In this document: in pieces, positions 19,193-57,868 of the stretch
Layout: the number at the start of each line of letters is the position of its first letter
How positions within the stretch are numbered: position 1 is the stretch's first letter
The notes under the pieces: model-generated
Told to the model about the DNA's origin: nothing
The model's input: only the letters and a program-made list of their open reading frames with translations
The model's database searches: none
Translations under genes and position numbers: made by a program
NCBI GenBank assembly: GCA_903889905.1
Contig: CAISZI010000046.1
Location: forward strand, 853 to 64,852
Direction: 5' to 3'
Origin: Candidatus Wirthbacteria bacterium
GTDB lineage: Bacteria > Patescibacteriota > CG2-30-54-11
DNA length: 64,000 bases

Positions 19193-19957
19193 ATGCAACT
19201 CCTCACCCTCAACATCTGGGGCGGCAAACTCCTCGAGCCGCTCCTCCAATTTGTTTCTGAGCAGGCGACGGCAACGGACGTCTTTTGCTTTCAGGAAATG
19301 TACCGCGCGCCCCACGACCAACTGATCAGCCGCGACATGCATGCCGACCTGTTTGGGCTAATCTCTCAAAAACTTCCCAACCACCAGGGTTTTTTCGCAC
19401 CACATCTAAGAGGTTATGACCTCAGCGGCAAGGTAGGTTTCAAGCTCGAAAGTGGCTTGGCAATATTCGTACGCAAGACGTTCAAAGTGGACGAATGCAG
19501 CGACTTCTTTATCTTTCGTAATGGCTTTGATCTGGAGAACAACGACATCGCCACCATTCCCCGCAACCTCCAGTACCTCAAGTTTGCAACGCCCGACAAA
19601 AACTACCTTATCAGCCACTTCCATGGTCTCTGGTTTCCCAAAACCAAACTCGACACTGAAGACCGCCTCAAACAATCTCAAACCATCCGTCACTTTCTCG
19701 ATTCCCGCCCCGAAGCCAAACTCCTCTGCGGCGACTTCAACCTGCTGCCCACCACACAAAGTGTCCAAATCCTCGAACAAGGCATGACCAATCTGATCAC
19801 CAAGTACAAGATCCCCACCACCCGCAACCGCCACTACCAGCGAGAGGAAAAACACGCCGACTATGTGCTTGTTTCGCCGGAGATAACGGATCTAAGTTGT
19901 GAGGCGCTCAACGTGGAGGTGTCGGATCATTTGCCGGTGAAGGTGGAGTTTAAATAA
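19193..19957 (+). CDS. Endonuclease/exonuclease/phosphatase (EEP) family protein
   Basis: LNIWGG and FCFQEM N-terminal motifs, with C-terminal SDHLPV. Confidence 0.75.
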   Translation: MQLLTLNIWGGKLLEPLLQFVSEQATATDVFCFQEMYRAPHDQLISRDMHADLFGLISQKLPNHQGFFAPHLRGYDLSGKVGFKLESGLAIFVRKTFKVDECSDFFIFRNGFDLENNDIATIPRNLQYLKFATPDKNYLISHFHGLWFPKTKLDTEDRLKQSQTIRHFLDSRPEAKLLCGDFNLLPTTQSVQILEQGMTNLITKYKIPTTRNRHYQREEKHADYVLVSPEITDLSCEALNVEVSDHLPVKVEFK

Positions 19958-19971
19958 TTATTGAGCCTCCC

Positions 19972-20829
19972 ATGATCCAATCCCTCATCATCGACGTCGA
20001 CGGCGTGATTGTTGGCGAAAAGGACGGTTACAACTTCCCCTATCCGCACCCCGACGTGATCGCGCGGCTCAAGGCCATTCGCGCCAAAGGAATCTTTGTC
20101 AGCCTGTGCACAGCCAAGCCTTATTATTCGGTCCAGAAGATAATCGAAGATGCGCACCTCGACAACCTGCACATTACCGAAGGCGGCGGCGTGATCATCG
20201 ACTCTCTCGACCACGTCATTCTCAAAAAGCACACCATTCCAACACCACAGTCTCTCCAGACCATCGACCTCTGCCTCAAGCACGGCATTTATACCGAACT
20301 CTACGCACTCGACCAGTACTACGTCCTCCGCGGCCAGATCAAGCCACTCACCCAAGTCCACGCGTCCATCCTCCAGCGCGACCCGGTGATCGTGGATTCA
20401 CTGCACGCCGTGGCCAAAGAACAAGAAATTGTCAAAATCATGGCCATTGCCACAGACACCACCTCGGACAAAGACCGCATCACCGCGCTATTCAAACCCT
20501 ATGCCGACGAGCTCACCCTGAGCTGGGGCGTGCATCCGGTCGCGCTGCCCAACATTTTCGGCATCGTCACCACCAAAGGCATTTCCAAGCAGCAGGGCAC
20601 CATCGAGATCAGCCAAAGCGAGGGTGTGAGTCCAGACCACATGCTCGGCATCGGCGACAGTACCAGCGACTGGCAATTCATCGAATCCTGCCGCTACGCC
20701 GGCGCCATGGGCAATGCCACTGCCGACCTCAAATCCCTGGTCCAAACCAAAGGCGAAGGAAACTTCGTGATTGGGAAATCGGTGGATGAGAATGGAATTT
20801 TGGGGATATTGGATTGGTTCGGGGTGTGA
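19972..20829 (+). CDS. Cof-type HAD-IIB phosphatase
   Basis: Motif I IIDVDGVIV and C-terminal GIGDSTSDWQFIESCRYAGAMGNA. Confidence 0.8.
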   Translation: MIQSLIIDVDGVIVGEKDGYNFPYPHPDVIARLKAIRAKGIFVSLCTAKPYYSVQKIIEDAHLDNLHITEGGGVIIDSLDHVILKKHTIPTPQSLQTIDLCLKHGIYTELYALDQYYVLRGQIKPLTQVHASILQRDPVIVDSLHAVAKEQEIVKIMAIATDTTSDKDRITALFKPYADELTLSWGVHPVALPNIFGIVTTKGISKQQGTIEISQSEGVSPDHMLGIGDSTSDWQFIESCRYAGAMGNATADLKSLVQTKGEGNFVIGKSVDENGILGILDWFGV

Positions 20830-20855
20830 TAGAACGCTGACATTGTTGTAAAATT

Positions 20856-20883
20856 ATCTATGCATAGTATACTATACATAGAT
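20856..20883. promoter_or_regulatory. 28-bp near-perfect palindrome ATCTATGCATAGTATACTATACATAGAT at the insertion junction upstream of the DUF4143 ATPase gene
   Basis: Symmetric apart from one mismatched position pair. It contains a TATACT -10-like hexamer. Confidence 0.4.
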
Positions 20884-20898
20884 AAAAAAGGAGCGATA

Positions 20899-22368
20899 AT
20901 GGTTAGAAACAAAGCACAAACTGAGGACGTCTTCACTATCGCCTCCCTCATCAACACCCTCGCGACCTACAATCCCTGGTGGACAAATCTGGATTTCGTT
21001 TGGAACAATCCCTCATTCAAACGGGATTCCTTTGCCTCTGGCGTGCAGCACCTGAAGGAAACGCATGGATTAGCCCTTCTCATCAATGGACCACGCCGCG
21101 TGGGCAAGACCACCCTGATGAGACAACTGATCGAATATCTGGTGCAACAAAAACAAGTTTCCCCACAGCGTATCCTTTTTTTCTCCCTTGACGATCCCTT
21201 CATCCAGCAATTTCCAGCCAATGAGCGGGGCGCGGCGTTTGAAAAAATCATTGCCCAATGGGAAGTTACTCTCAATTTCAAAATTGCGACCTCCCCGGAA
21301 CCCGTTTACTGCTTCCTCGACGAAGTCCAACGACTCCCCAATTGGGAACTCTATATCAAACGTTATGTGGATTTGCAGTATCCCATCCGCTTTGTTATTT
21401 CCGGTTCAGCCTCCCACACGATTTTTCGCAAATCGCTCGAAAGCCTGCTCGGCCGCCTGGTTGAGATTTCCCTGCCGCCCTTCACCTTCCGGGAATGGGT
21501 GCGGTATCACCAGCCAGAATGGGCCAACGTCCTCGACAACATGACACAAACCCGCTTCGACATCAATGACGCCGCCGTGGTCAAAACAGTCATAGAAAAC
21601 GTCGTGGACAGAATAGGCCAGAGAAATCTCACCTTTTTTGACCAATTCGCCTCTGCCTATGCCCGCGCTGGGGGATTCCCGCAACTGTGGACCCAGGAAC
21701 CGTTTGAGCGGGCTCAGTTCGTCGACTTGCAGTATGTCCAACGCGTCACACTGGAAGATCTGAGGCTGATCAAGGAAATTCGGCGACCGGAGATTTTTCA
21801 CCAATTTTTGCGCTATGCCTTTGCCCGCACCGGCGAAGAATACAATTTGGAAGCCTTGGCGACAAAGATCAAAACCACCCGAGTTACCCTATCCGGAGCG
21901 CTTCCGTTGCTACTCCAGACTGAACTGATCCGCAAAGTCGACCGCTTTACACACAAACCCGTTCGTCTCCGCACCACCCACGCCAAACTCTATGCCACGG
22001 ACACGATGCTCTATGAAGCCATCACCAAAGTCCCCGCTGATCTGGATGGCACGGACAAAGGCCGGATCGCCGAAACGCTGGTTTACAATACCATCCGACG
22101 CTTTGCCGGAATCACCGACATTACCTACTATCGCACCAAAGATGGCCAGAATGAGATCGATTTCATCGTCCGCGTCGGCCGCTCGCTCGTCCCCATCGAA
22201 GTCAAAAACCGCGCCGACGCCAAAGCCAACAATTCAGACAGTATGGAGGAATTTCTCAAAGAATTTGCCTCCGAAAGTACCTTTGGGATCATCGTCACCC
22301 GAGCCACGCTTGACCTCTCACAAAAGATACTCAAAATCCCCCTGGCAGTCTTTCTTTTATTGAACTAA
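20899..22368 (+). CDS. AAA+ ATPase with C-terminal DUF4143-like region (COG1373 family)
   Basis: Walker A GPRRVGKTT and Walker B CFLDEVQ. RBS AAGGAG lies upstream of the ATG at 20899. Confidence 0.7.
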   Translation: MVRNKAQTEDVFTIASLINTLATYNPWWTNLDFVWNNPSFKRDSFASGVQHLKETHGLALLINGPRRVGKTTLMRQLIEYLVQQKQVSPQRILFFSLDDPFIQQFPANERGAAFEKIIAQWEVTLNFKIATSPEPVYCFLDEVQRLPNWELYIKRYVDLQYPIRFVISGSASHTIFRKSLESLLGRLVEISLPPFTFREWVRYHQPEWANVLDNMTQTRFDINDAAVVKTVIENVVDRIGQRNLTFFDQFASAYARAGGFPQLWTQEPFERAQFVDLQYVQRVTLEDLRLIKEIRRPEIFHQFLRYAFARTGEEYNLEALATKIKTTRVTLSGALPLLLQTELIRKVDRFTHKPVRLRTTHAKLYATDTMLYEAITKVPADLDGTDKGRIAETLVYNTIRRFAGITDITYYRTKDGQNEIDFIVRVGRSLVPIEVKNRADAKANNSDSMEEFLKEFASESTFGIIVTRATLDLSQKILKIPLAVFLLLN

Positions 22369-22470
22369 CTCAAATCCCTGGTCCAGACCAAAGGCGAAGG
22401 CAACTACGTGATTGGGAAGACGGTGGATGACAATGGGATTTTGGGGATTTTGGATGGGTTTGGGGTGTGA
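22369..22470 (+). pseudogene. Diverged duplicate (~89% identity) of the last ~100 bp of the Cof-HAD gene (20728-20829); gene 3'-end remnant
   Basis: Direct comparison gives about 11 mismatches in 102 bp. It encodes LKSLVQTKGEGNYVIGKTVDDNGILGILDGFGV* against LKSLVQTKGEGNFVIGKSVDENGILGILDWFGV* in the intact gene. Confidence 0.7.
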
Positions 22471-22474
22471 AAAT

Positions 22475-23173
22475 ATGGATATAAAAATTTCTTTCGAAAA
22501 ATATGATTTTGCGAATGTTATTTACGGCACTGAGGATACTGAATGTATTTCGTTATTCCGATCTCACTATCAAAAACAAATAGATTCTTTTATTAAAAAT
22601 ATTCATTCTTCTTATTTACGCTATCTAGATCTTTCGAAGTTAATTAATGGAAGCGAACGAAAAAGTCATATTACTTTGTTTGTCTTTGCTTCGATTAATA
22701 ACATAGCCTTGGCGTGTAAATTTTTATTATCAAGCTTATTGCCAGCCTCTGGACATCACTCACGAATGTTCGTTGAAGCAATTTTAAGTTCGATGTTAAT
22801 GTCAAAAGATAATCTTGACCAAAAATATTATAAAGACTATGCGTCTGACTTTAATAGTTTTAAGTCTCATAAAGTCTTTCGATATATTGAAAACAATCTT
22901 ATGATGCTAAAAATGCCAAAAGACTCATGGGAAAATATTAAAAAAATAAAAGACCACTACAATCATTTTTGCCATGCCTCTGCCTTTTCACTTGCTACTA
23001 ATTATTTACTAGAAAAAAAAGAGGAACCTGGATCTGTGCTTATCCTAGGCTCGGCTTTTGACAGTCGGAAACTTGCTCTTTATACCAAAGAATTAGACAG
23101 ACTTATTTCGGCGTCGACGCTCATAAATTCTGTTATAGACTACTTAATACTTGAATTCAAAACTTTGAAATAA
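22475..23173 (+). CDS. Hypothetical protein (232 aa) in an AT-rich (~32% GC) segment; probably horizontally acquired
   Basis: Sharp compositional break against the ~57% GC flanks. N/K/I/L/S-rich ORF with no recognised domain. Confidence 0.5.
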   Translation: MDIKISFEKYDFANVIYGTEDTECISLFRSHYQKQIDSFIKNIHSSYLRYLDLSKLINGSERKSHITLFVFASINNIALACKFLLSSLLPASGHHSRMFVEAILSSMLMSKDNLDQKYYKDYASDFNSFKSHKVFRYIENNLMMLKMPKDSWENIKKIKDHYNHFCHASAFSLATNYLLEKKEEPGSVLILGSAFDSRKLALYTKELDRLISASTLINSVIDYLILEFKTLK

Positions 23174-23197
23174 TATTCCCCAAACAAGGGCCCCATC

Positions 23198-23314
23198 ATG
23201 CCCACCTCCCCACCCATCGTCTCCACCCACTCCCTGCGCAAAACGTTCAAAGGCAAAGGCGGCAAGCCTGTCGACTCTATGACTGACCCAGTATCAACAG
23301 TTTTAATACGGTAG
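23198..23314 (+). pseudogene. Possible short N-terminal remnant of an ABC ATPase gene
   Basis: MPTSPPIVSTHSLRKTFKGKGGKPV resembles an ABC ATPase N-terminus, and the ORF stops after 38 codons. Weak. Confidence 0.2.
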
Positions 23315-23473
23315 CAACGACGACCGTCAGGGCGCGGATCAACGATTCGTTCGGAAGTCATGCCATCGTTGAATCCATTGTGATTTTCATCTGCCTCACC
23401 GTCATCACCCTCAGCTGGTTCATCCACGTGATGTGCGAAGCGGTGGCGTAAAGACGGTAGTCCCGTTCCTGTT

Positions 23474-23574
23474 GTCATTGCGAGCCATTCAAAATGGAGT
23501 GGCAATCTAGTTCTCTTTCGACGACTTTAATGCAAACCACTAGATTGCCACGTCGCTGACTTCTCGCAATGACG
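23474..23574. repeat. Nested inverted repeats: outer 11-bp GTCATTGCGAG/CTCGCAATGAC and inner 12-bp TGGCAATCTAGT/ACTAGATTGCCA with a 27-nt loop
   Basis: Perfect complementarity in both arm pairs, and no trailing U-run. It sits directly 3' of the ABC permease gene on the minus strand. Confidence 0.45.
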
Positions 23575-23580
23575 GAGTAT

Positions 23581-25506
23581 TTATTCCCCCCTCATCGCCT
23601 CAATCGGTGACGTATTGGCCGCGGTATCGGCCGGGATCAACGCAATCACCAGGGTTATGACAAGCAGAATGACGCTATGGATTTTAAATGTGGCAAAATC
23701 AATCAGCGAGAACTGGGAATTACTCACCGGGTTGACCACGTTGAAAGCATCTTTGATGGATTTGCCGAGCACGTCCACAAACCAGGTGTGCATGGGCGCA
23801 GAGATCAATTTTATCGAAACTATTCCCACCAGCACGCCTACGCCGTAGCCGATCACGGTCAAGACCAACGCCTGCCAGAAGAATAACGCGCGGATCTTGT
23901 CTTTGCTCATGCCGAGCGCCCGGTAGACGCCGATTTCACGTTTGCCTTCGCTGACGAATTTGCTCATGACAAAGCCGATCAGGATGATGCTCAGCACCAC
24001 AAAAGCCAGGCTAAAACCCCAGGTGGCCAGACTGAGGTTGCGCTGCAGGTCACGGAAAATGTTGGTCTTGGAATTATCCTGAAAACCATACCCGGCCTGG
24101 TTCATTGCTTCGACCACGGCAGGGCGGTCATAAATCGAATTGATCTTGATTTCCATGGTATCACCAATCACCGGCACGGTACTGAGGAATGACAAATCCT
24201 TGATTTCGCCCTGTACCGAACTGTCGGTGCGTTTGACCGAGATGATCAAACCCGGAATCGTATAAGACGTCAGCGCGCCCGGCGGTCCTCCCAAGCTTGC
24301 CCCGCCGACAGCCACCGCAGTCGTCGTGCTACTTACCGCGACAGCCGATCCCATCATACCGGTGCTGAGTGTGGCGCCCCCACCCATCATGCTAAAAATA
24401 TCCTGCTTAAACGACACGCCGTCGTAATTCTGGCCCAAAAACGTGCTGCCGAGCAGTGCTTTGTCGATCGCTTTGGTAGTGCGGGCATCGATCTGGTGCT
24501 GGTAGTAGTCATGCTGGATTTTGTTCAATGCCGCTGGCGGGACATAGGACATGGCGCCGTCTTCGACAATGCCGACAACTTTGAATTTGTAGCTGATGGG
24601 CGCCTTGATCTTGGCGTAATCCCAGTAGGGAGCAATGGCGTCTGACTGTTTTTTGTCGGTCGCGGCAAGCTCTTCGGTCGTGTATTTGTGAAATTTGAGT
24701 CCGGTCTCGGTGGGTGTAGTGCTAAAATCCTGTCCGGCCTGTAAGCCACCAATATCCACAGTAAAAACCTTGCCGATCAAAGTGTTTTTGTCAAAATTGA
24801 CGGCGCGTTGCTGATTGGGAAAGGGATTTGCTCCGTCACTGCCGTTGGCATTGATCGTGGCGGACGTTCCGCTCGTAACCATGCCGCTTGCTGCGGTCGA
24901 TCCAGCGTTGATCGCAGCTGCCTTGGGAAAGGTCATTTCCATGTCCTGTTTGCCGTTCCACTGTTCGTACTCTTCGATAAAACCACTTGCATTCAGGATC
25001 ACCGGAATGGGCTGGCCGTCCTGATAGCTAAAATCACTACTGGTGTATTTGCTGGCAAAGGCGCTGTCCAGACCCTGGAAGCTCATCAGGCTCACTTTTT
25101 TGCCCGCAAACAAATCCGACGATGCCATCTGGTTCACATTGAGCGCTTGCAAAATGCTGGCTTTCTGCACACCCGCTATCGCGCTCACAGCGTCCTGGTC
25201 TTTCTGGTTGTAGCCATTCTGGGTCGGATCGGCATTGAAACTGACCATACGCACCGCACCACCGCTCGTTGATGTTCCACCCGGCAGATTGGCCATGGGA
25301 TTTTTGCTCAGCTCCAGCACGCGGTTCTGCTCCTCAACCGTGCCCACGATCATGCCCTGCGCGGCGCTGCGGATGTTACTGGTTTCGCTGACAATGATCA
25401 AACCAAGCGCGACAAGTATTGCCATGGGTATTACCAGAAACAGCGCTTTGCTTTTATAGAAAAATAATTTTTTGAAATTGATCACCAAAATTTGCCAAAA
25501 CGACAT
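23581..25506 (-). CDS. ABC transporter permease, MacB/FtsX-like (N-terminal TM, large extracytoplasmic domain, C-terminal FtsX 4-TM)
   Basis: Matching topology and C-terminal FtsX-like helices. The preferred start is MSFWQ at 25506, preceded by AGGAG; the tracked ORF extends to 25560. Confidence 0.8.
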   Translation of the reverse strand: MSFWQILVINFKKLFFYKSKALFLVIPMAILVALGLIIVSETSNIRSAAQGMIVGTVEEQNRVLELSKNPMANLPGGTSTSGGAVRMVSFNADPTQNGYNQKDQDAVSAIAGVQKASILQALNVNQMASSDLFAGKKVSLMSFQGLDSAFASKYTSSDFSYQDGQPIPVILNASGFIEEYEQWNGKQDMEMTFPKAAAINAGSTAASGMVTSGTSATINANGSDGANPFPNQQRAVNFDKNTLIGKVFTVDIGGLQAGQDFSTTPTETGLKFHKYTTEELAATDKKQSDAIAPYWDYAKIKAPISYKFKVVGIVEDGAMSYVPPAALNKIQHDYYQHQIDARTTKAIDKALLGSTFLGQNYDGVSFKQDIFSMMGGGATLSTGMMGSAVAVSSTTTAVAVGGASLGGPPGALTSYTIPGLIISVKRTDSSVQGEIKDLSFLSTVPVIGDTMEIKINSIYDRPAVVEAMNQAGYGFQDNSKTNIFRDLQRNLSLATWGFSLAFVVLSIILIGFVMSKFVSEGKREIGVYRALGMSKDKIRALFFWQALVLTVIGYGVGVLVGIVSIKLISAPMHTWFVDVLGKSIKDAFNVVNPVSNSQFSLIDFATFKIHSVILLVITLVIALIPADTAANTSPIEAMRGE

Positions 25507-25531
25507 GAATGTCTCCTCGTTATGCTTTAAA

Positions 25532-26239
25532 TTATTTATTTTTGTCTTTGACGACTTCACCTTTTTCGATGCGGATGGTACGTTTGCAATGCTTGCTCAC
25601 CGCGCTATCGTGCGTCACCACGACCAAAGCGGTGCCATCTTTGATGATCTCGTCAAACATGGCCAGGATCGTGTTGGCGTTGTCCTTGTCCAGGTTGCCG
25701 GTGGGTTCGTCGGCCAAAATCATGTTGGGTTCGTTCGCCAGTGCCCGCGCCACGGCCACGCGTTGCTGTTCGCCGCCCGACATTTGTTTGGGCAGATATT
25801 TGAGCCGGTCGACCATGCCAAAACGTTGCAACAAGACTTCGGCTCTGGCCATCGCCACCTTGTAACTCTTGCCGGCAATCAGCAGTGGAACCGCCACGTT
25901 CTGCTGCGCCGTGAGGTAGGATTGCAGATTGAAAGTCTGAAAAACAAAGCCGATGGCCTGATTGCGAAATTGCGACAGTTCCTTGTCCCCGAATTTGCTC
26001 AAGTTGTGGCCCTCAACCAGGATCTCACCACTGGTGGGAGTATCCAGTCCGCCCAGCAGATGCATAAGCGTGGATTTGCCCGAGCCCGACGGTCCTTCGA
26101 TGGCCAGACTTTCGCCTTTCTGGATGACGAAAGACACATTGTCCAAAGCTTTGAATTTGTGTGACCCCTGCTGGTAAACACGGGTAACGCTTTTGACTTC
26201 GATCATTGGTTTTTGTCCATTTAATATGACACGACGCAT
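25532..26239 (-). CDS. ABC transporter ATP-binding protein (MacB/LolD-like)
   Basis: Walker A GPSGSGKST, signature LSGGEQQR and Walker B ILADEPT. Confidence 0.9.
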   Translation of the reverse strand: MRRVILNGQKPMIEVKSVTRVYQQGSHKFKALDNVSFVIQKGESLAIEGPSGSGKSTLMHLLGGLDTPTSGEILVEGHNLSKFGDKELSQFRNQAIGFVFQTFNLQSYLTAQQNVAVPLLIAGKSYKVAMARAEVLLQRFGMVDRLKYLPKQMSGGEQQRVAVARALANEPNMILADEPTGNLDKDNANTILAMFDEIIKDGTALVVVTHDSAVSKHCKRTIRIEKGEVVKDKNK

Positions 26240-30351: not shown

Positions 30352-30455
30352 TGGAGCGGGTGACGGGAATCGAACCCGTATCTTCAACTTGGAAGCCTGC
30401 CTGGCGCTCCGGCAGACAAGCCTGCCTGGCTGACCGGCAGACAGGGCTGACATAA
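30352..30455 (-). pseudogene. tRNA-Gly 3' portion (positions ~21-76 including CCA) with a 49-nt GC-rich insertion in the anticodon stem-loop; lacks the 5' acceptor and D arm
   Basis: 45 bp (30352-30396) are identical to the 3' part of the intact tRNA at 30471-30515. The insertion lies between GTCAGCC and CTTCCAAG. Confidence 0.6.
30395..30444 (+). repeat. Tandem 2 x 25-bp GC-rich repeat (AAGCCTGCCTGGCGCTCCGGCAGAC / AAGCCTGCCTGGCTGACCGGCAGAC) making up the insertion in the tRNA fragment
   Basis: The two units differ at 3 positions. A partial third copy (CGGCAGACAG) sits in the 5' tRNA fragment at 30841-30850. Confidence 0.5.
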
Positions 30456-30468
30456 TATTATTTGATTT

Positions 30469-30543
30469 TGGAGCGGGTGACGGGAATCGAACCCGTATCT
30501 TCAACTTGGAAGGCTGACATAATAACCATTATACGACACCCGC
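30469..30543 (-). tRNA. tRNA-Gly (anticodon TCC), intact, with encoded CCA
   Basis: Manual fold of GCGGGTG (acceptor 5'), TCAGC/GTTGA anticodon stem, CTTCCAA loop (U33, TCC, A37), ACGGG-TTCGATT-CCCGT T-arm, then CACCCGC-T-CCA. Confidence 0.8.
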
Positions 30544-30548
30544 ATGGG

Positions 30549-30788
30549 TTAAACTGATTTCAAAAATCTCTTGCCTGCTGATGATTTTAGATATTTTTCG
30601 TGTTCTCGACCGGTCTTGTAATCAGGAAAAGCCTTTTGATAAGTCAATTCAAACGAGCCAAATTGACTAGTAAAAAAACTTTGCCCGCGCCGATGTTCAC
30701 TAAGTCGGCGATCTAAATTATTTGTCATTCCAATATAAATTTGGCCGCTTGCCTTATCACGGATTGCATAAACAGTTATTTCATTCAT
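30549..30788 (-). CDS. GIY-YIG nuclease-family protein (COG2827/UPF0213-like, 79 aa)
   Basis: MNEITVYAIRDKASGQIYIGMTNNLDRRLSEHRRGQ carries the GIY...YIG motifs plus the conserved R and E/H, and the length is typical for standalone GIY-YIG domains. ~38% GC. Confidence 0.85.
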   Translation of the reverse strand: MNEITVYAIRDKASGQIYIGMTNNLDRRLSEHRRGQSFFTSQFGSFELTYQKAFPDYKTGREHEKYLKSSAGKRFLKSV

Positions 30789-30816
30789 TTTTTTACCCCA
30801 ACTTAACAACGCTGCT

Positions 30817-30882
30817 TCTTCAACTTGGAAGTTTACCTGTCGGCAGACAGGGCTGACATAATAACCATTATACGACACCCGC
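30817..30882 (-). pseudogene. tRNA-Gly 5' portion (acceptor 5', D arm and anticodon loop, positions ~1-46) with a 19-nt insertion; lacks the T arm and 3' acceptor
   Basis: 33 bp (30850-30882) are identical to the 5' part of the intact tRNA at 30513-30545. The insert CTGTCTGCCGACAGGTAAA forms a small hairpin. Confidence 0.6.
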
Positions 30883-31037
30883 AAGCGCCTAACCCAGCAA
30901 ACTCAAATCATTTTAAGGTGCGTTTATCAAACTCACTTGTTGTGTATATCACCAATTGGTCCAGAAACTCAAGACATTTGTTGATATCGCCGCTAAGTTT
31001 ATACACAGGACCAGCAACTGTCAAAGGTGATTTTGAC

Positions 31038-36121: not shown

Positions 36122-37204
36122 TTACACTTGCCGTATTGCTCCCGCAAAACCCTTCATCCGCATTTGGACTTCATTGGGATTATCCGCAAAGTTGAGCGCA
36201 TTCTCGGCGGTGATCAAATCCTGCTGGTACAGCTCAAAAATGTTCTGGTCAAACGAATAAATGCCATCCTGACCGCCACGGCGCAGGACTTCTTTCATGT
36301 CACTGATTTTATGGTTCATGATCAGTTCCTTGATCATCGGGGTCACGGTCAAAAATTCCGTAGCCACCACGCGTCCACCTTCTGTGCCTTTGCGCGGGAT
36401 GAGGCGCTGGGCAAAGACGCCAATCAGGTTCATGGACAGGATCAACAGGAGCTGTTTTTCCTTGTCGGCGGTAAACAGCGAGAGCAGGCGTTCCAGGCTT
36501 TGGTAGGTATTGGAGGCATGCAGCGTGGCAAATACGAGGTGGCCGGTTTCGCTCATGGTCATGGCCGTAATCGCCGTTTCCAGGTCGCGGATTTCCCCAA
36601 TACTGATCACGTCCGGCGCTTCACGCAGGGTGTTTTTGAGCGCATTTTCAAAACTCATGGTATCGATACCCACCTCACGCTGCGAAACGATGCTCATTTT
36701 GTCGGCGTAAACATATTCGATCGGGTCTTCGATGGTGATGATGTGGTTGGCCATGCTCGCATTGCGGTAATCGATCACCGAGGCCAGGGTGGTGGATTTG
36801 CCAGAGCCCGTCGGCCCACAGACAAAAAACAGGCCACGTTTCTTGAGTGCTACTTCCTTAAGTTTAAGCGGTAGCCCCAGGCTTTCCATCGTCGGGATTT
36901 CATTGCTGACTTTACGCATCACAACCCCAAGCGCACCCATTTGGAAGTACGCATTGAGACGAAAACGGTCGCCTGTTGCGCTTTTATAAGACAAATTGCA
37001 TTCACGGGTGTGGACAAAGTCCTCCCATTGCGCCGGGCTCAAAATGGTTTTGGTCACCTGTTCCAGTTCAACGTGGCCAAGCGGAGTAGCCGTAAGCGGT
37101 TGCAGCAGGCCATCCACACGTGCCATGGGTTTGGCGTCTGATTTGAGGTAAAGATCAGAAGCTTTGAGCTGAACCATTTGCTGGACAAGATTGTCAAAAA
37201 TCAT
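36122..37204 (-). CDS. PilT-family type IV pilus retraction ATPase, paralog (PilU-like)
   Basis: Walker A GPTGSGKSTT, Asp/His boxes and PilT-family core. Confidence 0.8.
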   Translation of the reverse strand: MIFDNLVQQMVQLKASDLYLKSDAKPMARVDGLLQPLTATPLGHVELEQVTKTILSPAQWEDFVHTRECNLSYKSATGDRFRLNAYFQMGALGVVMRKVSNEIPTMESLGLPLKLKEVALKKRGLFFVCGPTGSGKSTTLASVIDYRNASMANHIITIEDPIEYVYADKMSIVSQREVGIDTMSFENALKNTLREAPDVISIGEIRDLETAITAMTMSETGHLVFATLHASNTYQSLERLLSLFTADKEKQLLLILSMNLIGVFAQRLIPRKGTEGGRVVATEFLTVTPMIKELIMNHKISDMKEVLRRGGQDGIYSFDQNIFELYQQDLITAENALNFADNPNEVQMRMKGFAGAIRQV

Positions 37205-37220: not shown

Positions 37221-38333
37221 TTAAATCATGCGATTGGTATTAGTGTGTGTGACTTCGGTGTTGATCAGCGGCGTTTTGCCCAGCATCAGTTGCTGGAAAT
37301 TTTTGAGGTCATAGGCTTTTTGTTCCGCTTCTTCGGCGCTGATCAGTCCTTCGCGGAAAAGCAGAACGAGTGCCTGGTCCAGACTTTGCATGCCTTCGCT
37401 GTTGCCCAGTTGAATCGTATTCAGAATCTGGTGCGTTTTGTTTTCGCGGATCAAATTGCGCACAGCCGCACTGGCAAACATGACTTCCATGGCCATGGCG
37501 CGCCCTTGTCCATCGCTGGTCGGAACTAGAGTCTGCGCCAAAATACCTTCAATCGCTTCACTTAGCTGCACCCGAATCTGGTCCTGCTGATCAGACGGAA
37601 ACACGTCGACAATACGATCCAGAGTACGACCGGCACTCGCGGTGTGCAGCGTGGCAAAAACGAGGTGACCGGTTTCGGCGGCGCGGATGGCGAGCTGAAT
37701 GGTTTCCAGGTCACGCATTTCACCCACCAGAATTACATCCGGGTCTTCGCGCAAGGCACTGCGCAACGCCGCGGCAAAGGAATGGGTATGATTACCGATT
37801 TCACGCTGGTCAATGATGCATTTGTTGTGGTTGTGGACATATTCGATCGGGTCTTCGAGCGTGATAATGTGCAATTTACGATTGCGGTTGATGTAATCAA
37901 TCATCGAAGCCAGCGTCGTGGATTTACCAGAGCCGGTCGGGCCTGTCACCAAGACCAGGCCGCGTTCCAACCCCGTCAGTCGCATCACCTGTTTGGGCAG
38001 TCGCAACTCGTCCGGAGAAGGCACCATGGCCGGAATCAGACGAAAAGCGCCAGCCATGCCACGTCGCGTCAGATAAACGTTGACACGGAAGCGCGCCACA
38101 TTCTCGAGTTCAATCGAAAAATCCAGTTCGTGGTCGGCGTCAAATTTGGCTTTCTGGTCTTCGGTCAAAATACTGTAAAGCATGTCCTGAAGCTGTTTGC
38201 GTTCCAAGACAGGATAATTGGGAATTGGCATGATATCGCCATGCACTCGATTCATCGGCGTGGTGCCCACCGTCACATGCAGGTCGGAAGCTTTGGCGTC
38301 CCGCGTTTTCATTAGTAATTCGGCGATATCCAT
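37221..38333 (-). CDS. pilT: Twitching-motility ATPase PilT
   Basis: Walker A GPTGSGKSTT and the C-terminal AVRNLIRENKTHQI signature. Confidence 0.85.
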   Translation of the reverse strand: MDIAELLMKTRDAKASDLHVTVGTTPMNRVHGDIMPIPNYPVLERKQLQDMLYSILTEDQKAKFDADHELDFSIELENVARFRVNVYLTRRGMAGAFRLIPAMVPSPDELRLPKQVMRLTGLERGLVLVTGPTGSGKSTTLASMIDYINRNRKLHIITLEDPIEYVHNHNKCIIDQREIGNHTHSFAAALRSALREDPDVILVGEMRDLETIQLAIRAAETGHLVFATLHTASAGRTLDRIVDVFPSDQQDQIRVQLSEAIEGILAQTLVPTSDGQGRAMAMEVMFASAAVRNLIRENKTHQILNTIQLGNSEGMQSLDQALVLLFREGLISAEEAEQKAYDLKNFQQLMLGKTPLINTEVTHTNTNRMI

Positions 38334-57475: not shown

Positions 57476-57843
57476 GGGGAGAAACAGTTTTAGGTGCGGC
57501 CGGTTCGCGCCCATACAATAGTTGACGGCATTGAATAGAACTTCCGACAGTGTCGCTAGGTTCCTGCTTTTTACGACCTCACCTAAAACTGTTTCTCCCC
57601 TGAGCTTCTTTTTTGTTCACATAATCTGACCCGTCCAGAAACAAGACTTTTCCGGATTCATTCTGCCTCCGTCTCCGCCCGACCAACGCCTGATCATGAA
57701 ACACCACGGCCCACCCGAGCCTGTTTCCGGGTGCGACCGTAAAAAGCAGGAACCTAGCGAATAGAACGGAAGAATTATTCACCCGCCATCAATCTCCGGA
57801 CGGGCGCGAATCGGGCGTACCCGGAAACAGGCTCGGGTGGGCC
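57476..57843. repeat. Chain of three interleaved perfect inverted-repeat pairs: A/A' 21 bp (57476-57496 / 57580-57600), B/B' 22 bp (57554-57575 / 57738-57759), C/C' 25 bp (57708-57732 / 57819-57843)
   Basis: Reverse complements checked by hand. Order is A..B A'..C B'..C', and each right arm is preceded within 5 bp by the left arm of the next pair. A' is followed by a T-run. Confidence 0.6.
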
Positions 57844-57868
57844 GGAACTCTCCCTTCCCAAAAAGATA

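Follow-up and report, generated by a model that had tools for sequence, protein, structure and literature searches.

A diverged copy of a hydrolase gene end flanks a PDC-S01 candidate defence gene in a Candidatus Wirthbacteria contig

Background

Genes of the PDC-S01 family are among the most common candidate defence genes (PMC12988326). They were nominated through 'guilt-by-embedding' inside other defence systems and have candidate status only (PMC12988326; preprint 10.1101/2024.01.29.577857), and one recent survey places the family fourth in commonness across prokaryotic defence systems as a whole. The literature describes the route by which defence genes end up inside other loci as unexplored. 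Here we describe a PDC-S01 gene in a 64,000-nt stretch of a Candidatus Wirthbacteria bacterium assembly (GenBank GCA_903889905.1, contig CAISZI010000046.1, positions 853 to 64,852 of the forward strand), which was analysed at its full length and is referred to as the window. The gene and its promoter lie between the intact 3' end of a HAD-type hydrolase gene and a second, diverged copy of that same end. The gene resembles PDC-S01 in its strong hidden Markov model match, its two-domain architecture and its conserved nuclease motif, and its homologues are usually embedded in type I restriction-modification (R-M) operons; it differs in that the window copy sits behind a housekeeping hydrolase gene and not in a defence system. 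Our guarded preference is to read the 102-nt duplicate as the scar left when a single gene was acquired by homology-anchored recombination from a related lineage.

Free-standing homing-endonuclease genes insert at the 3' end of a gene together with a foreign copy of that end, as in atp6 of Allomyces macrogynus mitochondria. The arrangement there (a host gene with a foreign tail, a nuclease open reading frame (ORF), and a displaced native tail in frame with the nuclease) is like the one proposed here. The protein here is instead of the AAA+ plus PD-(D/E)xK class and has its own promoter and ribosome-binding site, and the cassette is not tied to one target gene, as unrelated genes share the scar. 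Integrative elements that target 3' ends are likewise bounded by direct repeats of the gene end, with the element-proximal copy restoring an intact gene; the present case differs in having no integrase, a single-gene unit, and many unrelated targets in related loci. It differs from a transposon with a target-site duplication in that its repeats and those of related loci are 38-102 nt long, diverged and biased towards synonymous differences, with no terminal inverted repeats at the cassette ends in the window and no transposase domain in the Pfam-scanned ORFs around the locus.

Displacement of Rhs C-termini and the effector-immunity arrays of type VI secretion (T6SS) in Vibrio cholerae (PMC5361080) share with this locus a homology anchor in a conserved gene and a resident end pushed downstream in the same orientation, and repeated events there stack orphan ends, as at two of the loci described below (L013 and L003). 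In those systems the payload replaces a variable toxin end, whereas here it is a gene that stands alone under a promoter of its own, the end that is duplicated measures only 40-220 nt, and the anchor is a housekeeping or R-M gene. Homology-facilitated illegitimate recombination (HFIR) has been proposed for the displacement of T6SS effector-immunity modules, in a paper that refers to this same model for the displacement of Rhs C-termini (PMC5361080); the scar there is a precedent for the one seen here.

Results and discussion

The repeat and the cassette between its copies

The Cof-type HAD-IIB hydrolase gene, which is intact and encodes 285 aa, occupies 19972-20829 on the plus strand. Its last 102 nt (copy A, 20728-20829), which form the functional 3' end and comprise 34 codons including TGA, recur on the same strand at 22369-22470 (copy B) without gaps and at 90% identity. 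Alignment and self-blastn of the window both recovered the pair, which was the strongest repeat (E 1.8e-31), with no second of such size, and the first-pass annotation was thus right that the end of the HAD gene recurs in frame and with its TGA. Copy B has no start codon; it begins directly after the TAA stop (22366-22368) of the ATPase gene described below, in the same frame as that gene, and keeps its own reading frame and stop. The ten mismatches comprise six synonymous and four non-synonymous changes (F>Y, S>T, E>D, W>G), and the longest exact match is a 17-nt run at the left end of the repeat, 20728-20744, CTCAAATCCCTGGTCCA. Copy A retains the family-conserved residues of IGKSVDENGIL..[aromatic]F. 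Copy B carries DENG>DDNG and aromatic>G. Neither change occurs in any of the 38 tails of the family that were inspected, and both fall at positions which the family conserves, as a relic predicts. Copy B would then be the displaced resident HAD tail, and copy A the tail imported with the cassette.

The span between the repeats, 20830-22368, is 1,539 nt long and holds one promoter and one ORF. The repeats had earlier been taken to bracket an insertion of ~2.7 kb; the segment 22471-23580 in fact falls outside them, although its contents, an ORF of ~32% GC followed by gene debris and a nested hairpin, are present as described. An insertion adjoining the 3' end of the HAD gene is itself supported, as is the identification of a DUF4143 AAA+ ATPase gene with a palindrome ahead of it. 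The 69-nt leader (20830-20898, plus strand) has a sigma-70-like promoter, TTGTAA-16-TATACT, which overlaps a palindromic putative operator and is followed by an AGGAG ribosome-binding site. The palindrome (20854-20885) has arms of 16+16 nt with 94% complementarity, overlaps the -10 box, and is probably an operator. The ORF (20899-22368, plus strand) encodes an ATPase-nuclease of 489 aa with Pfam matches to AAA_14 (E 2.5e-30) and DUF4143 (E 2.6e-24), the latter listed within the PD-(D/E)XK superfamily (PMC3424549). In PADLOC, 7 PDC-S01 models match the protein, with E 2.8e-50 over residues 40-487. In the nuclease motif, E392 and D421 do not vary among 32 homologues and E434 is nearly invariant; K436 rounds off the PD-(D/E)xK motif by inspection of the sequence. 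The gene can be regarded as a candidate anti-phage gene of the PDC-S01 family with its own promoter.

Homologous cassettes at other loci

Homologues of the ATPase, 489-491 aa long and 55-69% identical, occur in Margulisbacteria/WOR-1, Wirthbacteria and several Parcubacteria groups. The locus set comprised 80 fetched metagenome loci and 4 obtained by exact look-up. At 19 loci the ATPase gene has hsdM, hsdS or hsdR as a neighbour, in type I R-M operons, and the hsdM stop often lies exactly 61 nt upstream of the ATPase ATG. The 20-nt palindrome core ATGTATAGTATAsTATACAT is kept in 17/17 aligned leaders at a fixed distance from the ATG; the same alignment shows no conservation upstream of the -35 box and none at the cassette edges outside the promoter. 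Two loci (L018:774-2337 and L034:3939-5503) have in common a 98%-identical stretch of 1,565 nt that reaches from -61 to +27 of the ORF, and the flanks beyond it are unrelated. These shared limits, and the 98% copy in unrelated flanks, argue that promoter and ORF together form a discrete cassette that has moved recently between contexts. The cassette DNA gave no match to plasmids.

Three observations on the cassettes are recorded separately. At L009 and L020/L021 a second copy of the palindrome lies just past the ATPase stop. An ORF of ~104 aa (ME.ESKQ...ILERRKEIEQELVDMLKE), which may be a partner gene of the ATPase and is not found in the window, begins 5-6 nt past the ATPase stop in four lineages and 116 nt past it in a fifth (L018:2316-2630, L019:3312-3632, L024:2437-2748, L029:2007-2321 and L037:5593-5892). 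The palindrome of the window was also considered as a dif/Xer-like site and rejected: it can be read as 11-6-11, yet it does not appear to match the dif consensus, and it overlaps the -10 box.

Divergence between the copies

Differences between repeat copies were counted by the Nei-Gojobori method and pooled over six independent repeat pairs, including pairs from other loci that are introduced below. There were 30 synonymous differences over 76.7 sites and 19 non-synonymous differences over 286.3 sites, a ratio of non-synonymous to synonymous differences per site (pN/pS) of 0.17. The binomial P was 1e-9 against an omega of 1, and 4e-5 against an omega of 0.55, which is the expectation for one neutral and one constrained copy. 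The pair in the window alone gave a pN/pS of 0.20. The L089 pair has four synonymous and no non-synonymous differences, and in the L068 pair pS is 0.83 (saturated) while the peptide is nearly the same (pN/pS 0.09). The synonymous bias implies that both copies diverged mostly inside working genes, and hence that one of them came from another lineage; the copies appear to be homeologous and not decayed twins. The truncated copy appears to be the one in its native context, because at L089 its start codon and the stop of the preceding gene overlap (ATGA) and in the window copy B ends 4 nt before the next ORF.

A simpler history would be that the HAD tail was duplicated in tandem in place, for instance when replication slipped in the course of an illegitimate insertion, and that the downstream copy then decayed neutrally. 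No donor carrying the cassette behind a HAD gene would be needed, and the two unusual amino-acid changes of copy B would suit such decay. The low pN/pS here and in the pooled pairs, with the one-neutral-copy model rejected for the pooled pairs, is at odds with this history, and copy B has neither indels nor stop codons at 10% divergence, so that we consider duplication in place very unlikely.

Recurrence of the scar around other genes

The 600 nt upstream and the 400 nt downstream of the ATPase ORF were compared at each locus, with shuffled sequences as a control. Independent lineages were defined by clustering cassettes at 90% nucleotide identity where both flanks were available (n=33). The scar in the window scored a z of 72. 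Direct repeats of the same geometry were found in 8/33 lineages, the other 25/33 having no repeat; the end of the left copy lies 63-100 nt ahead of the ATG, the right copy begins 0-35 nt past the stop, and the repeats flanking the cassette are 38-102 nt long. Three of the repeats are formed by the 5' end of hsdR: 67 nt at 94% identity at L089, whose ATPase is 69% identical to that of the window; about 70 nt at L010-L013, a single locus seen in four samples; and 51 nt at L047. At L039 the repeat (about 69 nt) consists of the ribosome-binding site and 5' end of the next gene, and at L041 it is 38 nt of the 5' end of a lexA-like gene on the other strand. L003 has three copies of one gene tail (3' end; 91% and 78% identical), and L016 has a weak repeat. 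The repeats are unrelated in sequence between loci and are drawn from the end of a neighbouring gene, and so come from the target and not from the element.

The same test was applied to 169 other genes (at least 250 aa) in the cassette loci and the window, and 4/169 were positive. These were an NYN-like gene at L022 between ~106-nt copies of the hsdM tail, an ATPase gene at L013 with pieces of the hsdR 5' end on both sides, a gene at L003 between two of the three tail copies, and a gene at L068 flanked by YicC-like tail copies of 169 nt. Accessory genes are therefore enriched for the scar, which is not specific to the PDC-S01 ATPase. An intact gene facing a truncated, same-orientation copy of its end across an insert is seen in the window and at L089, L010-13, L047, L039, L041, L022 and L068. 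At L013:2357-5545 an hsdR 5' fragment, the other ATPase gene just named, a further hsdR 5' fragment, the PDC-S01 cassette and an intact hsdR follow one another, and at L003:2203-5978 the three tail copies separate inserted genes; both stacks look like serial insertions at one gene end. Since the scar occurs at unrelated targets (hsdR 5', hsdM 3', lexA-like 5' and YicC-like 3' ends), it points to a general homology-anchored recombination and not to a single att core.

This recurrence bears on the possibility that copies A and B represent attL and attR, left by an integrative element with a copy of the HAD 3' end in its attP, the tyrosine or serine recombinase that inserted it having been lost or acting in trans. 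Direct repeats of a gene 3' end with a replacement copy are the classical signature of such elements, and the 17-nt identical run at 20728-20744 is a possible crossover core. Against it stand the same scar at unrelated targets and around unrelated genes, a bracketed unit that is merely a promoter and an ORF, cassette edges with no conserved sequence outside the promoter, and the lack of any recombinase or integrase domain in the bracketed segment and in the scanned ORFs between 8.1 and 33.3 kb. We judge it unlikely. The first-pass annotation had compared the locus to integrative elements that carry a replacement copy, had seen no integrase, and had suggested a decayed island that had lost one. 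The idea that one tail is a replacement copy which arrived with the insert draws support from the synonymous bias, and the integrase is indeed missing from the same ORFs, with no family match in the debris. A lost integrase is not needed to explain a scar that recurs at unrelated targets around other accessory genes, and decay does not describe the low-GC ORF, which is intact, belongs to a family with 212 representatives and is modelled with a mean pLDDT of 91. The locus is one inserted defence-candidate gene beside an older foreign ORF, and not a decayed prophage or integrative island.

The ATPase-nuclease might instead mobilise itself, making staggered cuts 40-100 nt apart that are filled in to give long target-site duplications which later diverge. 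Its intact PD-(D/E)xK motif joined to an AAA+ ATPase, the sharp and recurrent cassette limits, the 98%-identical copies in unrelated flanks, the spread across phyla at 55-69% identity and the variation of repeat length between 38 and 102 nt would all fit. Such duplications should not be the never-identical repeats observed, with differences that show purifying selection on both copies, and neither the same scar around unrelated genes, nor the absence of terminal inverted repeats, nor the 25/33 lineages without a repeat favours self-mobilisation, which we hold to be highly improbable.

Proposed mechanism and its alternatives

We infer the direction of import, the arrangement in the donor and the class of enzymes as follows. 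The donor would be a related lineage, ~90% identical in the HAD gene, in which the cassette already lay directly behind that gene. On entry, the left side of the donor DNA would pair with the resident HAD gene and undergo homologous recombination, while on the right side a non-homologous joint would link the end of the cassette with codon 252 in the resident HAD gene. The product would be an intact HAD gene with the imported tail A, then the cassette, then the displaced resident tail B still attached to the low-GC ORF, its original neighbour. A cassette-free resident allele is predicted to have a B-type HAD tail joined directly to AAATATGGATATAAAA. Such a process would amount to HFIR, or end displacement, carried out by host recombination functions, with neither an integrase nor the ATPase taking part. 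It is favoured by the fact that exactly one promoter and one ORF are bracketed, with no recombinase and no terminal inverted repeats.

Several points weigh against this account. The non-homologous junction falls exactly at the ATPase stop codon, and many loci have the cassette's left edge at -61 to -69; these edges are tidier than random illegitimate joining predicts, and there could be a site-specific step. The recurrent sharp edges may reflect either selection that trimmed insertions to the promoter edge or a more specific step. Microhomology at 22368/22369 would be at most 1-2 nt, which would be rather little for HFIR (3-10 nt), and HFIR is rare in laboratory systems (PMC5361080). The test for synonymous bias in the window pair is based on just 10 differences. 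Neither a donor allele nor an empty-site allele was found in the searches described below.

A Campbell-type route would avoid an illegitimate joint at each transfer: recombination between the two repeats would release a 1,641-bp circle made of the cassette and one copy of the gene end, and a single homologous crossover would place it in the corresponding gene end of a relative, again giving a diverged direct repeat. It yields exactly the observed structure with evenly spread homeologous mismatches, and it suits the clean junction at the stop codon. The stacks at L013 and L003 ([relic][gene][relic][cassette][hsdR]) resemble serial cassette addition, and many homologues lie on contigs of 1.6-1.8 kb. 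The sole short contig checked (L092, 1,695 nt) is nevertheless linear, breaking at the left edge of the cassette and within hsdR, and is not circularly permuted. The limits of the repeat differ among the three hsdR insertions, which implies independent founding events that would each need an illegitimate step, and homologous recombination works poorly on repeats that are 50-100 nt long and 80-94% identical. On this evidence the circle is a rather doubtful explanation.

We give similarly little weight to a broader conjecture, in which gene-end fragments serve as portable, integrase-free attachment sites where single-gene defence cassettes are excised and re-inserted, through circles formed by host recombination or through a site-specific step that possibly involves the palindrome or the ATPase-nuclease. 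If it held, integron-like stacks of defence genes would be expected at hsdR 5' ends, with occasional insertions behind housekeeping genes, and defence genes would have a general route to become embedded in other systems.

The HAD gene, its neighbourhood and the search for an empty site

The HAD protein matches Pfam Hydrolase_3 (E 1.8e-25) and scores above the cutoff of TIGR01484 (HAD-SF-IIB; 47.2 bits, cutoff 41.8) and below the curated cutoff of the Cof subfamily model TIGR00099 (89.7 bits, cutoff 137). Its 671 homologues are mainly from Patescibacteria/Microgenomates, the best being 62-64% identical. The genes between 8 and 33 kb have housekeeping functions (PurL, PurQ, several HAD hydrolases, an ABC transporter and an O-antigen ligase-like protein), and the PDC-S01 copy is neither embedded in nor beside a defence system, its neighbours belonging to purine synthesis and the HAD hydrolases.

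Exact-protein look-ups recovered only the source contig and one fragment of 1,081 nt. A search with the HAD protein gave a single relative, 47% identical, in the genome collection and none in metagenomes, and no fetched homologous cassette had a HAD gene beside it in the donor-type arrangement. No empty site was found because the closest HAD homologue is too distant. In two relatives of the HAD gene (~60% identity) a convergent gene follows 3-5 nt past the HAD stop, a different gene in each, with no gene order in common. Since relatives have a convergent gene so close behind the stop, everything between the HAD gene and the convergent FtsX gene of the window could be accreted DNA; the comparison fits this idea and does not prove it.

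The 1,081-nt fragment is an independent ENA contig (BUCK21-1, ERZ18626762; locus L001), found as the same contig in 3 samples, that is 100% identical to 19748-20828 of the window. It stops at 20828, the penultimate base of copy A, and so at the cassette's left edge. Such a reproducible contig end suggests a branch in the assembly graph, that is, strain variation at the insertion point. As the window comes from a metagenome-assembled contig, the same branch might hint that assembly fused two co-occurring strains into a chimera. Copies A and B, however, match exactly over no more than 17 nt, too short to mislead an assembler, and independent assemblies of other samples show this architecture too (among them L089, and L010-L013 in four samples); we give a chimera almost no credence.

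A separate observation concerns GC skew. On the coding strand it passes from C-rich to G-rich within 20745-20829 of the HAD tail, as seen in the profile, and within 19860-19957 of the tail of an Exo_endo_phos gene, as judged by eye. The switch in the final 80-100 nt of both genes could stem from the composition of the C-terminal peptides or from earlier end replacements.

Features downstream of the bracket

Copy B abuts a low-GC ORF of 232 aa (22475-23173, plus strand), whose ATG is 4 nt past the TGA of copy B. Its GC content is 30-34%, against ~52% in the flanks, according to the GC profile. The source annotation begins this gene 14 codons too early, inside copy B and in another frame (P0241, 246 aa). 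The ORF is intact and belongs to an uncharacterised all-alpha family: 212 representative homologues (E<1e-3) of ~220 aa each share the invariant residues R97, E101, H167 and Y203 and an SGN motif, and an AlphaFold2 model is all-alpha. The protein gave no match in Pfam, PADLOC or NCBIfam and no fold match among PDB or viral structures; one family member weakly matches DUF5677. Distant homologues lie in accessory regions of Burkholderia plasmids, next to genes for an AbiEii toxin or an integrase. Since copy B and the low-GC ORF are contiguous, this ORF was probably acquired separately from the cassette and earlier.

The ORF is followed at 23174-23462 by non-coding gene debris, in which six-frame translation revealed no intact ORF with a family match. 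The debris includes a short ORF at 23198-23314 and a C-terminal hydrophobic fragment ending at 23451. The N-terminus of the short ORF may, on our own reading only, resemble the start of an ABC ATPase. Neither the fragments nor a 121-aa ORF on the minus strand matched Pfam even at E 10, and the debris has no paralogue within the window. A long nested hairpin at about 23474-23573, which separates the debris from the stop of the convergent FtsX gene, has a minimum free energy of -49.1 kcal/mol (z -5.75; 0/200 shuffles were as good). It has no second copy in the window and belongs to no Rfam family, an Rfam search of 19-26 kb having returned nothing meaningful; it might act as a terminator in both directions or represent a small repeat element. 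A gene for an FtsX-type ABC permease (23581-25560, minus strand; Pfam FtsX E 1.4e-16), convergent with the run that contains the HAD gene, bounds the variable zone on the right.

Three further groups of repeats were noted elsewhere in the window. At 30352-30883, just upstream of a Wzy_C/TPR gene and reaching into its start, are short direct repeats that are close to perfect (one of 48 nt at 98%; others of 33 nt and 23 nt at 100%). A match of 104-107 nt at 78% identity links 36711-36814 with 37837-37940, in the adjacent minus-strand ORFs 36122-37204 and 37221-38333, which are probably tandem paralogues. The stretch 57553-57844, apparently intergenic, contains two short inverted repeats within ~300 nt, one of 33 nt (94%) and one of 23 nt (100%).

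Conclusions

The scar described here is a diverged duplicate of the end of a neighbouring gene, and its synonymous bias indicates that the cassette and one gene end came together from a related lineage. Scars of this kind could be used to date and orient acquisitions, and to map the flow of defence genes without recourse to the genes of mobile elements. Such mapping would include the Patescibacteria, which depend on DNA uptake.

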